37,688 nt of DNA. Origin: Thioalkalivibrio sp. (lineage in GTDB: Bacteria; Pseudomonadota; Gammaproteobacteria; SpSt-1174). Shown piece by piece: positions 14,098-17,564 of this stretch (its first letter is position 1; every line of letters starts with the position of its first letter). The translations under genes were made by a program, and so were the position numbers. The notes under the pieces were generated by a model, which saw nothing but the letters and a program-made list of their open reading frames with translations, ran no database searches and had not been told where the DNA came from. The stretch covers positions 1-37,688 of the forward strand of contig DSBO01000048.1 in NCBI GenBank assembly GCA_011046015.1, in the 5' to 3' direction.

Positions 14098-14145
14098 TTC
14101 TCAACTCCTCGATCATTGCTACTTTGGTGTAGCTGTAGGATGACT

Positions 14146-14163
14146 ATACAAACACCGTGCCAA
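14146..14163 (-). promoter_or_regulatory. sigma54 (-24/-12) promoter for soxYZ
   Basis: Minus strand TTGGCACGGTGTTTGTAT versus consensus TGGCACG-N4-TTGCW; the only deviation is GT for GC at -12. Confidence 0.8.
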
Positions 14164-14180
14164 CAGAGGCGACCTTGTAA

Positions 14181-14193
14181 AATCAACAGGTTG
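14181..14193. promoter_or_regulatory. IHF binding site
   Basis: AATCAACAGGTTG matches WATCAANNNNTTR exactly, at about -45 to -57 of the sigma54 promoter. Confidence 0.7.
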
Positions 14194-14225
14194 TGACCGA
14201 GGCGCGTGGAGATGGCGGCGCGTTG

Positions 14226-14262
14226 GTTGCAAATTGCAACGGGCGCCCGTTGCAATTTGCAG
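14226..14262. promoter_or_regulatory. Tandem enhancer (UAS) sites forming a perfect 34-bp palindrome
   Basis: TGCAAATTGCAACGGGC|GCCCGTTGCAATTTGCA (14228-14261); each half contains GTTGCA-N3-TGCA; about -90 to -126 from the predicted start. Confidence 0.7.
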
Positions 14263-14272
14263 GCGGGGTGGC

Positions 14273-15625
14273 CTAGAGGGGCGATTCCTTGTCGTACTGT
14301 TGCAGCTTGCGCCAGAGGGTGGACTTGTTGATGCCGAGTGCCGTGGCGGTCCTCTCGCGGTTGCCGTTGAAGCGGTCGAGCAGCTTGAGGATATAGCGTT
14401 TCTCCAGCTGGGAGAGGTCGGGCTGGTCGGCGTCGATGGCGTCACCCTCGTGCAGGCTGCTGACCAGGTCGTCCTGCAGGTGCAGGCGCTTGCCGTCGGC
14501 CAGGGCGATGTGACGCTCGACCAGGTTGCGCAGCTCGCGCACGTTACCGGGCCAGCTGTAGTCGCGCAGGCGCTCCATCGACGCGGCGTCAAAGCCGTCG
14601 ATATCCCGGTGGTAGCGGGCGTTCATCTCCTCGATGAAGCTCGATACCAGCGCGGGGATGTCGTCCCGGCGTTCGCGCAGCGGCGGCAGCTGGATCTTGA
14701 CCACGTTGAGGCGGTGATAGAGATCGGCCCGGAACTCACCCTCGGCCACCATCTTCTCGAGGTTGCGGTTGGTGGCGACGATAAAGCGCACGTCAATGTC
14801 AGTGGGCTTGATGCCGCCCACGCGCGTGACCTGCTGTTCCTGTACCACGCGCAGCAGCTTGGTCTGCATGGCGTCGGAGATGTTGCAGATTTCGTCGAGG
14901 AACACGGTGCCGCCGCTGGCGGCCTCCAGCAGGCCCTGTTTGCTGTGGGTGGCACCGGTGAAGGCACCTTTCTCGTGGCCGAACAGCTCGCTCTCCAGCA
15001 GCGTGTCGGTGAGCGCGCCGCAGTCGATGACGATGAAGGGCTTGTCGGCATCCGCGCCCTGGTTGTGGATCGCGCGGGCCACCAGCTCCTTGCCGGTGCC
15101 CGACTCACCCTCGATGATCACGTTGCAGCGGATGTCCGCTACCTTGTCGATGATGGCGTAGATGTTCTGGATCGCCGTCGAGTTGCCGATCATGCGGTAG
15201 CGCAGCTTCTCGTCCTTGAGCTGACGCTTGAGGAGGCGGTTCTCGCGCTTGAGCGCTTCGGTCTCCAGCGTGCGCTCGACCTGCAGCAGCAGTTCCTCCA
15301 TGTCGTAGGGCTTCTTGATGAAGTCGGTGGCCCCCAGCCGCAGGGCCTCGATGGCGTTGTCCACCGTGGAGTAACCGGTGATGATGATGACCGGCACGCT
15401 GTCGTTAATGTCGCGGATGTGACGCAGCAGCTCGATGCCGTTCATCTCGGGCATCGACAGGTCGGTGACGACGAGCTGGGCACCTTGCTCGCGAAAGTCG
15501 GTCAGGGCGTCCAGCGGGTTGCGGTGCACCGCAACCTCGAACGGCGACTGGCGCGTGAAGCGCAGAAACAGGTCGCCGGCCGTCGGGTCGTCGTCGACGA
15601 ACAGGATGCGGGGTGTGTCAGTCAC
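14273..15625 (-). CDS. sigma54-dependent two-component response regulator (NtrC family; TspR-like by context)
   Basis: REC (VDDD, VTDLSMP, KKP), AAA+ (GESGTGKE, ESELFGHEKGAFTGA, FLDEI, WPGNVRELRN), Fis-type HTH (ALGINKSTLWRKL). Confidence 0.95.
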   Translation of the reverse strand: MTDTPRILFVDDDPTAGDLFLRFTRQSPFEVAVHRNPLDALTDFREQGAQLVVTDLSMPEMNGIELLRHIRDINDSVPVIIITGYSTVDNAIEALRLGATDFIKKPYDMEELLLQVERTLETEALKRENRLLKRQLKDEKLRYRMIGNSTAIQNIYAIIDKVADIRCNVIIEGESGTGKELVARAIHNQGADADKPFIVIDCGALTDTLLESELFGHEKGAFTGATHSKQGLLEAASGGTVFLDEICNISDAMQTKLLRVVQEQQVTRVGGIKPTDIDVRFIVATNRNLEKMVAEGEFRADLYHRLNVVKIQLPPLRERRDDIPALVSSFIEEMNARYHRDIDGFDAASMERLRDYSWPGNVRELRNLVERHIALADGKRLHLQDDLVSSLHEGDAIDADQPDLSQLEKRYILKLLDRFNGNRERTATALGINKSTLWRKLQQYDKESPL

Positions 15626-17564
15626 TCGATTCTCCCGGGGTCTGCGGCCTGGGCGGCAGCACGATGGAAACGGTCAGGCCGCCGCGCTCGTTGTTGGCAA
15701 GTTTTATCGTACCACCATGGTGCTCGATGATGCCGAGACTCACCGACAGGCCAAGCCCGCTGCCCTTGCCCACCGGCTTGGTAGTGAAGAAGGGATCGAA
15801 CAGCTTGTCGATGATCTCGGGCGCGACGCCCGCGCCCTGGTCGCAGACGCAGATGCGGACCTTCTGTTCCTCGTCCACGCCTGCCTCGATGCGCACCTCG
15901 TCACCCGCGCCGCTCGCCTGTACCGCGTTGAGCAGCAGGTTGATCAGCACCTGCTGCAGTTGATGCGGGTCGCATTCGATGACCAGGTCGGGATCCATCT
16001 CCGACACGAATTCCACCCCCTGGTCGCGGGCCGCCTGGCTCACCAGCTGCAGTGACTGCTCGACCAGCGACTGAACGTGCGTGCGCTCGTAGTGCGGGGG
16101 CACCTGGCGAGAGAAATTGAGGATGCCGCGCACGATGCGTGAGGCGCGGTGAGCCTCGTCGACCAGCGCGCGCAGGTCTTCACGCGTTGCCCTGTCGTCC
16201 GGTGGCAGGGAACGATCGATCAGCTTGGCCAGCGTCAGGATGTTGTGCAGGGGGTTGTTGATCTCGTGCCCGATGCCCGCCGCCATCTCGCCGATGGAGG
16301 CGAGCTTGGCCGACTGCAGCAGCATGGATTCGGCCTGGTCGCGCTCCTCGCGCGCGCGTTCCAGGGTATCCGCCATGTAGTCGAAGGCGACCAGCAGTTC
16401 GTTGATCTCCTGCGTGGAGCGTACCGGCGCCAGCCGGCGGCGACGGCCGCGCGCGTAGTCGCGCAGCTGGCGCGTGAGCTGGGTGATCGGCCGGGCGATG
16501 CGACGCGCGCCGACCTGGGCCAGGACCAGGCTGGCGCCGATCGCGACCACGGCGAACAGCAGCATCCCGGCGCGTATGCGATTGAACGGCGCAGTGATGG
16601 CCGCCATGTCGACGCGTGTGGCGATCACCCAGCTCACCAGCTGGTTGGGGTAGGGGTAGTATTCGGCGTAGTAGACGCGGGTGCGTCCATCCGGCGCGTC
16701 GAAGGCCCCGTAGGGGGCGCTGCGCACGGCCTCCGTCAGGCGTCCGCCGAACTGCCCGTGAAGGTTGTCGGCCGGGGTCTTGGCCGTGCTGAAGAGCCGC
16801 CCGACCGTCTCGTCGTACAGGATCATGCCGTCGCGCTCGGGTACCTCCGGGTTCAGTTCCGCGATCAGCAGCCGCCCGTCGTAGAGTCGCGGCGAGAGTT
16901 CCAGGATCCGGTCGATCTGCACGCCCGTGGCGTTCACCGTGAGATAACCGATGGGCAGCAGCTCCGATTCGCCCGTTAGCGGCACCGCCACATCCAGCAT
17001 GGGCACGTGCCCGGAGTCGCCGTACTCGGTGTGCGAGGGCGGCTGCAGCAGGTAGTTCACCTCGCCCGGGTTCAGCGTCTGCAGCACGTACAGGAATTCG
17101 GGGTCGTCCAGCTCCTCTTCCGCATAGGGGTAGGGATCGAGTCCCATGAACGATGGCGGGGTCTCCTCGCCGTCGCGCACCTTCGCCAGCGTATTCCCGC
17201 GGTAGTCGAGCAGGCGGACGGTGCCCACGTCCTTGAGGATCAGCTGCACCTCGCCGAGAAAACCGGCCAGGTACCGGGTGCGTTGCTGGTGTTCGGCGTG
17301 CTGGTGACCGGTGAGTACGGCCCGCAGGACCGGCAGCACCTGATCCACCGAGGGCGACTGCGCCAGCGCGGCGATGACCTCGCGCTCGAAACTCAGGCGC
17401 CGGTCGAACTCCGCCACCGCGAAACTCAGGTTCGCCTGCAGGCGCTCGTCCACGTCCTTGCGGTGCAGCTGCTCGCTGTAGCCCGTGACCAGCAGCACGA
17501 TGGCCATCAGCGGCACCACGGTGGCCAGCGAGACCCAGAGAAAGATGTTGGTACGAAGGTGCAC
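15618..17564 (-). CDS. Membrane sensor histidine kinase (periplasmic Cache-like domain, HAMP, HisKA, HATPase)
   Basis: Two TM helices around a ~300-aa periplasmic region; KLASIGEMAAGIGHEINNPL, QVLINLLLNA, DQGAG, FDPFFTTK, GSGLGL; overlaps the regulator start. Confidence 0.93.
   Translation of the reverse strand: MHLRTNIFLWVSLATVVPLMAIVLLVTGYSEQLHRKDVDERLQANLSFAVAEFDRRLSFEREVIAALAQSPSVDQVLPVLRAVLTGHQHAEHQQRTRYLAGFLGEVQLILKDVGTVRLLDYRGNTLAKVRDGEETPPSFMGLDPYPYAEEELDDPEFLYVLQTLNPGEVNYLLQPPSHTEYGDSGHVPMLDVAVPLTGESELLPIGYLTVNATGVQIDRILELSPRLYDGRLLIAELNPEVPERDGMILYDETVGRLFSTAKTPADNLHGQFGGRLTEAVRSAPYGAFDAPDGRTRVYYAEYYPYPNQLVSWVIATRVDMAAITAPFNRIRAGMLLFAVVAIGASLVLAQVGARRIARPITQLTRQLRDYARGRRRRLAPVRSTQEINELLVAFDYMADTLERAREERDQAESMLLQSAKLASIGEMAAGIGHEINNPLHNILTLAKLIDRSLPPDDRATREDLRALVDEAHRASRIVRGILNFSRQVPPHYERTHVQSLVEQSLQLVSQAARDQGVEFVSEMDPDLVIECDPHQLQQVLINLLLNAVQASGAGDEVRIEAGVDEEQKVRICVCDQGAGVAPEIIDKLFDPFFTTKPVGKGSGLGLSVSLGIIEHHGGTIKLANNERGGLTVSIVLPPRPQTPGESSD

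Follow-up and report, generated by a model that had tools for sequence, protein, structure and literature searches.

What switches on the genes for the sulfur carrier SoxYZ, and whether that switch is theirs alone, is the question raised by a locus in a stretch of DNA from Thioalkalivibrio sp. (assembly GCA_011046015.1, contig DSBO01000048.1, positions 1 to 37,688). The whole stretch of 37,688 nucleotides (nt) that was analysed is called the window here, and the genome from which it comes (GTDB lineage Gammaproteobacteria; SpSt-1174) is referred to as G000; other G-numbers stand for sampled genomes and L-numbers for loci. The G000 assembly holds 2.2 Mb in 256 contigs and is 76% complete. On the minus strand of the window lie, in this order, a gene for a sensor histidine kinase, a gene for a sigma-54 activator, a gap of 175 bp (14098-14272) between the activator stop and soxY, then soxY, soxZ, a terminator-like hairpin and an Abhydrolase_2 gene. 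A preliminary description of this DNA had seen in it a complete sigma-54 circuit dedicated to soxYZ, and every site and gene that it named was found where it had been placed, namely the kinase, the activator with its GAFTGA motif, two operators, a box for integration host factor (IHF), the -24/-12 element and soxY. The core of that interpretation proved right, and its assignment of the circuit to a known family proved wrong. From the sequence, we give a probability of about 0.75 to the reading that the kinase and the activator act together through a sigma-54 promoter to switch on soxYZ as a bicistronic operon.

Known regulators of Sox genes are few, those named in PMC12936845 being SoxR of Paracoccus, TspS/TspR of Acidithiobacillus caldus, a CsoR-type repressor of Thermus and SulRS of Sulfurimonas. 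The neighbourhood considered here has been noticed before, as a sigma-54 regulator and a kinase beside soxY(Z) at Tgr7_0038-0041 of Thioalkalivibrio sulfidiphilus (PMC6382920), and is mentioned again for the soxYZ locus of Thiohalomonadales lucinid symbionts (PMC11237559); the passages of these two papers that deal with the locus list the neighbours without a promoter, an operator, a sensor fold, a distribution or a relation to TspS/TspR. The linkage of the genes was therefore already in print, and the operator, which the preliminary description had offered as a new prediction, is not wholly new in that respect. A search of the full-text literature, which did not cover Li et al. 2017 on TspS/TspR, found no study of this soxYZ sigma-54 circuit.

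The Predicted soxYZ Promoter Region

The gap between the activator gene and soxY contains two operator candidates, an IHF box and a predicted sigma-54-type promoter (Table 1). Eight nucleotides separate the two palindromes, the centres of which are 23 bp apart, so that both would lie on the same face of the helix. Canonical sigma-54 promoters have GG at -24 and GC at -12, one helical turn apart (TGGCAC-N5-TTGCW). Upstream of soxY, the GG is found at 14161/14160 (-25/-24) and the spacing is kept, whereas the second dinucleotide, at 14149/14148 (-13/-12), is GT instead of GC, a departure from the textbook form. Counted from the GG at -25/-24, the predicted start of transcription falls at about 14136, which reproduces the position predicted earlier. 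On paper, the sigma-54 circuit is indeed complete, from the kinase with its large periplasmic domain and the GAFTGA activator to the two operator sites, the IHF box and the -24/-12 element. The genome has rpoN (506 bits, over its cut-off), and the geometry of the sites is fixed across many families.

The protein encoded next to the kinase has the make-up of an NtrC-class activator, that is, an N-terminal receiver, an AAA+ domain with GAFTGA and a Fis-type helix-turn-helix. Pfam assigns it Response_reg, Sigma54_activat (227.9 bits), AAA_lid_14 and HTH_8, and its translation carries the GAFTGA motif, shown as ESELFGHEKGAFTGA, and the C-terminal helix LGINKSTLWRKL. The start of its gene overlaps the kinase stop by 8 nt. 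Against NCBIfam, the top match is AtoC (441 bits, under the cut-off of 714), with NtrC and ZraR also among the best, and every score of the activator is under the equivalog cut-off. At the receiving end, SoxY opens with the twin-arginine (Tat) signal MKRRTLLKG and ends in the GGCGG arm, and SoxZ is adjacent, as is expected of a SoxYZ carrier. The soxYZ transcript probably ends at the predicted hairpin, before the Abhydrolase_2 gene.

Table 1. Genes and predicted sites of the soxYZ locus, with positions in the window.
Feature	Position	Strand	Basis or remark
Sensor histidine kinase, 648 amino acids	15618..17564	-	Pfam HAMP, HisKA, HATPase_c
NtrC-type response regulator / sigma-54 enhancer-binding protein, 450 amino acids	14273..15625	-	Pfam and translation
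Distal operator (upstream activating sequence, UAS) candidate CTGCAAATTGCAAC, core TGCA-N3-TGCA	14249..14262	-	centre 14256, about -120
Proximal operator (UAS) candidate GTTGCAATTTGCAAC, perfect palindrome	14226..14240	-	centre 14233, about -97
IHF box AATCAACAGGTTG, exact match to WATCAANNNNTTR	14181..14193	+	centre about -51
Sigma-54-type promoter TGGCACGGTGTTTGT (TGGCAC-N5-TTGT, -26 to -12)	14148..14162	-	GG and spacing canonical, GT at -12
Ribosome-binding site GAGGAG	14105..14110	-	before soxY ATG at 14097
soxY, 153 amino acids	13636..14097	-	TIGR04488 167.8 bits (cut-off 125), PF13501
soxZ, 103 amino acids	13296..13607	-	TIGR04490 145.2 bits (cut-off 76), PF08770
Terminator-like hairpin with T-run	13151..13170	-	consensus scan only

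Distribution of the Locus

The sensor domain of the kinase served as a probe (E<=1e-30) against 401 evenly sampled genomes of the class Gammaproteobacteria. It is the more specific probe, as the activator returned mostly unrelated sigma-54 regulators and two relatives at 57% identity (L004 and L005), neither of which has soxY in the flank examined, the L005 sequence ending inside the regulator. Orthologues of the sensor domain were present in 57 of the 401 genomes, in 42 of 320 genera and under about 35 family labels. The carriers that bear names are sulfur oxidisers (Thioalkalivibrio species, Ectothiorhodospiraceae, Granulosicoccaceae), and the database names of the relatives are generic, such as "sensor histidine kinase" or "NtrC family sensor kinase".

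With one weaker match (G040) added to the 57, 58 loci were examined, and the activator stop was located in 54 of them; the other four were left unjudged, the regulator running off the contig in three and only the kinase being present in one. At 25 of the 54 loci soxY starts at most 400 nt past the activator stop, and L168, where Pfam recognises SoxY and SoxZ directly after the regulator, brings the count to 26. A further 12 loci meet a contig end within 450 nt of the activator stop, and three of these (L099, L136 and L173) open with a SoxY-like Tat signal. At five loci soxY follows after one or more intervening genes, which encode a cytochrome c in L140, a second kinase in L148 and uncharacterised products in L162, L166 and L167.

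Conservation and Uniqueness of the Sites

A strict composite of an operator (at most one mismatch) and a -24/-12 element (score >=18) located 55-100 nt downstream was found at 16 of the 25 soxY loci and at five of the 12 contig-end loci, compared with four of 2290 control windows (250 nt each, both strands) drawn from elsewhere in these loci. Seven of the nine soxY loci that the composite missed have degenerate sites on inspection (e.g., TGCAAT-N8-GTGCA-N3-TGCAC with a promoter), so most of the misses are due to the strict thresholds; L102 and L175 have no site even in a relaxed tally. That tally was anchored on the best promoter candidate of each locus, those of L104 and L132 being chosen by hand, and at least one TGCA-N3-TGCA (at most one mismatch) lies within 125 nt upstream of the promoter at 37 of 40 loci. 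In the 37 related loci, the starts of the sites peak at 76-77 nt (18 sites) and at 98-101 nt (11 sites) upstream of the T of the -24 element; the sites in the window, at 76 and 99 nt, have the modal geometry of their relatives. An IHF-like box (at most one mismatch) occurs within 50 nt upstream at 19 of 39 loci and starts 29-32 nt upstream in 18, and it is from this positional clustering that the conservation of the box is argued. As for the unusual -12 element, the position upstream of soxY is C in 29, T in seven and A in one of the promoters of 37 relatives, and GT occurs in same-genus and same-family genomes too, so the GT of the window is a recurring variant of the lineage.

Within the window, the operator TTGCANNNTGCAA (at most one mismatch) has three matches against 0.66 expected, a number reached in none of 100 shuffles, and the IHF pattern has two against 0.11 expected. 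The -24/-12 pattern with one mismatch allowed is not rare (six matches, 4.63 expected), and the only exact match in the window is the soxY promoter. Across the 2.2-Mb assembly, TGGYAY-N5-TTGYD has only 15 sites on both strands, and the paired operator, outside of tandem-repeat arrays with a 7-bp unit, occurs before soxY only.

The same specificity emerged when the composite TGCANNNTGCA-N60-90-TGGYAYN5TTGY was run on both strands of the whole genomes of five relatives. Its only match is the soxY promoter in G001, G003, G021 and G028 (the four with a match being near-complete), with no control matches, and it finds no match in G015, where the promoter reads TGGATC. Since the composite is unique to the soxY promoter in four of the five relatives and in the assembled part of G000, the earlier proposal that the predicted circuit is dedicated to soxYZ is supported.

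In G000, more than 20 tandem arrays, each with 3 to 17 copies of the 7-bp unit (TTGCGAC, TTGCAAC or TTGTAAC), occupy what looks like non-coding DNA, often at contig ends (e.g., C26:3471-3589, C11:3093-3148, C7:22613-22661, C104:6146-6243 and C48:4-94); several come after a common stretch of some 25 nt. It is from these arrays that the remaining exact operator matches in G000 derive, and they were rejected as real second sites. In G001, two operator-like palindromes 22 bp apart lie between soxA and soxB (contig C39; L125:2074-2110), past a terminator-like hairpin that follows soxA and some 150 nt ahead of soxB. By eye, this pair has no GG-N10-GC or GG-N10-GT element; it might give the same activator a second target or serve it as a repressive site. 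In the second sox clusters of G003, G021, G028 and G015, no operator (at most one mismatch) was found near soxB.

soxAXB and the Second soxYZ Copies

The preliminary description further held that soxYZ is controlled separately from soxAXB. For G000 itself this is not something that can be shown, as SoxA and SoxB were not found in its 76%-complete assembly, which has one soxY only and by which their absence is not demonstrated. The layout of the five relatives agrees with the idea, as SoxA and SoxB are located elsewhere than the regulator locus in all of them. A second soxY stands beside soxA in four, namely G001, G021, G028 and G003 (in the last of which a contig end truncates the regulator-linked copy), and G015 has the regulator-linked copy only. 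Comparison of the two soxYZ copies within one genome (L098 with L125, L100 with L123 and L101 with L124) gave 84%, 98% and 89% DNA identity over about 800 nt. These copies are closer to one another than are the orthologues between these genomes, which suggests recent duplication or gene conversion. Near-identical copies of this kind would account for the many contigs that end at soxY, and this offers a practical reason for the breaks in draft genomes of these bacteria, which PMC6382920 remarks on for Thioalkalivibrio.

The Sensor Domain of the Kinase

The kinase consists of a first transmembrane helix (residues ~5-28), a periplasmic domain of about 300 amino acids (~29-330), a second transmembrane helix, HAMP, HisKA and HATPase_c. 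Its sensor part has no Pfam match at E up to 10, sCache_3_2 included, and a precomputed match to dCache_1 (PF02743) exists for four of 39 sequence relatives. An AlphaFold2 model built from 50 orthologues (mean predicted local distance difference test score 91.3, predicted template modelling score 0.85) places a long N-terminal helix and two stacked PAS-like alpha/beta modules between the two transmembrane helices, which is the arrangement of a double-Cache (dCache) domain. The best folds that Foldseek returned from the PDB are dCache sensor domains, i.e., 3lid, 3lie, 2p7j, DctB (3by9) and many chemoreceptors, with E-values down to 1.3e-9, a template modelling score by target of 0.7 and sequence identity to the solved structures of 9-14%. 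In the model, the periplasmic domain thus folds as a double-Cache, its overall fold being the same as that of vpHK1S-Z8 (3lid/3lie), DctB and the chemoreceptors.

Residues 1-350 of the kinase contain no cysteine at all, which speaks for a ligand that binds reversibly and against a switch based on a thiol or persulfide. Invariant or near-invariant in the sensor are R117, D120, E149, R226, E236, R244, W312 and R331. That ligand may be a sulfur oxyanion, which we infer from the target genes only, and the reduced-sulfur sensor of the preliminary description has the same basis; to our knowledge, an inorganic sulfur anion is not an established class of ligand for Cache domains.

Relation to TspS/TspR and Other Systems

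A sigma-54 system for sox genes, TspS/TspR of A. caldus, had been cited as precedent, and it holds as an analogue and fails as a member of the same family. In both systems the genes just ahead of the sox genes encode a membrane kinase and a sigma-54-dependent response regulator, and activation from a -24/-12 promoter through an upstream palindrome, as described for A. caldus, is predicted here too. As given in PMC6335251, PMC12194929 and PMC12936845, the target of TspS/TspR is soxXYZA-hyp-B, whereas the circuit in the window has soxYZ alone; the TspR operator is TGTCCCAAATGGGACA (PMC6335251), in contrast to TGCA-N3-TGCA; and the TspS sensor is described as sCache_3_2 (PMC12194929), shorter than the 300-amino-acid domain that is modelled as a double-Cache here.

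G000 has no match to TGTCCCAAATGGGACA with at most one mismatch. Two of the sampled genomes, both of one family, carry the operator exactly, and their TspR-type loci were recognised by it and by the published gene order. These loci encode a 528-amino-acid kinase (with a weak sCache_3_2 match), the regulator, a cytochrome c, soxY, soxZ, soxA, a DUF302 protein and soxB, the order described for the sox-II cluster of A. caldus. The kinase of the window aligns with the TspS-type kinase (L185) over the catalytic core only (28%) and not over the sensor, and the regulators are 37% identical over their full length. At another locus, the two genomes with the TspR operator have a pair that is closer to that of the window (regulator 57%, kinase 32-35%); this pair lies upstream of a DsrE-like gene and has TGCA-N3-TGCA sites.

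A quick IQ-TREE tree of 62 regulators places the regulator of the window in a clade of 54 rows (support 99), outside of which fall the TspR-type rows and the other activators of G000. Within this clade are a soxYZ-linked group of 48 rows (support 82) and a sister group of five rows, made up of the two Acidithiobacillus-type pairs with a DsrE-like gene downstream and three paralogues (L107-L109), the downstream gene of which was judged DsrE-like from the printed sequence only. All rows of the clade that extend to the C-terminus retain the recognition helix (S/T)TLWR, and that of TspR-like proteins is different, which matches the difference in operators. By these comparisons, the predicted circuit is analogous to TspS/TspR without being orthologous to it, and has a sensor, an operator and a target of its own.

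The sister branch itself was seen upstream of a gene for a secreted DsrE-like protein (L106:4503-4991, L177:2474-3010 and L107-L110), with a porin-like gene next in L177 and with one or two TGCA-N3-TGCA-like sites. Both branches of the kinase-activator family are present in G005, G021, G022 and G028.

NtrB/NtrC, AtoS/AtoC and ZraS/ZraR are two-component sigma-54 systems with IHF-assisted looping. The circuit upstream of soxYZ resembles the NtrC/AtoC/ZraR type in its receiver, AAA+ (GAFTGA) and HTH_8 domains, in its two sites about two helical turns apart at -100 to -120 and in the predicted IHF bend, and differs from it in the sensor, the operator and the genes regulated, which are not theirs.

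Proposed Mechanism and Alternative Explanations

In the mechanism that we propose, the double-Cache domain of the kinase would bind a small periplasmic ligand non-covalently, perhaps an inorganic sulfur compound such as thiosulfate, this being the most conjectural step of all, and the kinase would phosphorylate the receiver of the adjacent NtrC-type activator. The activator would then assemble on the two palindromes near -120 and -97, IHF would bend the DNA at about -51, and the AAA+ ring would contact sigma-54 RNA polymerase at the TGGCAC-N5-TTGT element and open the promoter, giving a transcript that may run from about 14136 to the hairpin after soxZ. The direction of control would be activation, and the output would be the amount of SoxYZ carrier, set independently of SoxAX and SoxB.

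Several observations weigh against this reading. At 11 of the 54 loci there is no soxY in the flank examined, and a DsrE-like gene stands downstream instead in L106 and L177, where it follows immediately and is periplasmic, and in L146, where it comes about 1.2 kb further on. The GT of the -12 element occupies a place at which GC is near-invariant. Neither ihfA nor ihfB was found in the 76%-complete G000, where there is a single HU/IHF-family gene; G001, of the same genus, has both above the cut-off. The gap between the activator and soxY has no predicted terminator, so some of the soxYZ transcript could come from read-through of the kinase-activator operon. A second activator of G000 (contig C56 near 11069), which is 40% identical and the nearest outgroup in the tree, has nearly the same recognition helix (DKSTLWRKI) and might recognise similar DNA, so the sites are assigned to the neighbouring activator on adjacency and co-conservation only. 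The folds closest to the sensor include the C4-dicarboxylate sensor DctB, so that a non-sulfur ligand is possible. Public sequencing runs that match 13100-15700 came to 19, in none of which the share of the sampled words exceeds 0.13 and only one of which is recorded as RNA, and they are evidence neither way.

Some of these points would suit an account in which the motifs are conserved for other reasons, soxYZ being transcribed mainly by read-through or by way of a sigma-70 promoter, with a different factor on the palindromes. The lack of a predicted terminator, the non-canonical -12 element and the second activator with its similar helix all lean that way, as does the palindrome pair between soxA and soxB of G001, which has no recognisable -24/-12 element. 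Yet operator, IHF box and -24/-12 element keep a fixed spacing in many families, as an enhancer-dependent promoter requires, and this is otherwise hard to explain; the composite is unique in whole genomes, and a search of the minus strand of the gap turned up no sigma-70-like promoter. We regard this account as improbable. Less credit still is due to the idea that the pair is the orthologue of A. caldus TspS/TspR, acting in the same mode through the same operator. The logic of kinase, sigma-54 response regulator and sox genes downstream is the same in the published system (PMC6335251), and the regulators can be aligned from end to end at 37% identity, but G000 is without the TspR operator even at one mismatch, the loci that do bear it differ in their kinase (528 amino acids) and gene order, the kinases can be aligned in the catalytic core only, and the genomes concerned keep the closer relative, with its 57% regulator, at another locus, while the TspR-like rows fall outside the 54-row clade in the quick tree.

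A variant that would leave the circuit as described, and change only its cue, has the kinase sensing an organic acid, a redox-related metabolite or some anion other than one of sulfur, which would tie soxYZ to general physiology. Among solved structures, the closest folds belong to dCache sensors of organic ligands (such as DctB and the amino-acid and histamine chemoreceptors), the sequence does not identify the ligand, and there is no cysteine for thiol-based sulfur sensing. Against this stand the targets of the family, all of them genes for sulfur carriers (soxYZ for the main branch, the periplasmic DsrE-like protein for its sister), and the sulfur-oxidising habit of its named carriers; the invariant or near-invariant arginines R117, R226, R244 and R331 would also suit an oxyanion, which is suggestive only. 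A non-sulfur cue is a minority view that we take seriously without expecting it to hold.

A wider proposal is put forward tentatively, with the odds somewhat against it in its full extent: that a widespread and unstudied family of double-Cache kinases and dedicated sigma-54 activators in gammaproteobacterial sulfur oxidisers, with this locus as its founding example, detects a periplasmic inorganic sulfur anion and sets the dosage of the carrier apart from that of the Sox enzymes. It would comprise a soxYZ branch, often serving an extra copy that is nearly identical to the one in the soxXYZAB cluster, and the DsrE-like sister branch with the same kind of operator. A testable regulatory model is now available for a large group of sulfur-oxidising gammaproteobacteria, among them the culturable Thioalkalivibrio species used in biodesulfurisation. 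It specifies an operator, a fixed enhancer geometry and a candidate periplasmic receptor, and it would have the carrier dosage regulated apart from the enzymes.

Neighbouring Genes

On the far side of the kinase, the gene upstream is lysA, which is divergent. After soxZ comes the Abhydrolase_2 (phospholipase/carboxylesterase) gene (12404-13072, minus strand), which tblastn also places in 11 related loci of several families. Further along the window, a minus-strand region (8550-11196) has a LytTR response regulator (8550..9365) adjoining an open reading frame for a LytS-type His_kinase. As listed, this reading frame shares part of its DNA with the argininosuccinate lyase gene of the opposite strand (10435..11826), and its true start is therefore probably further downstream.

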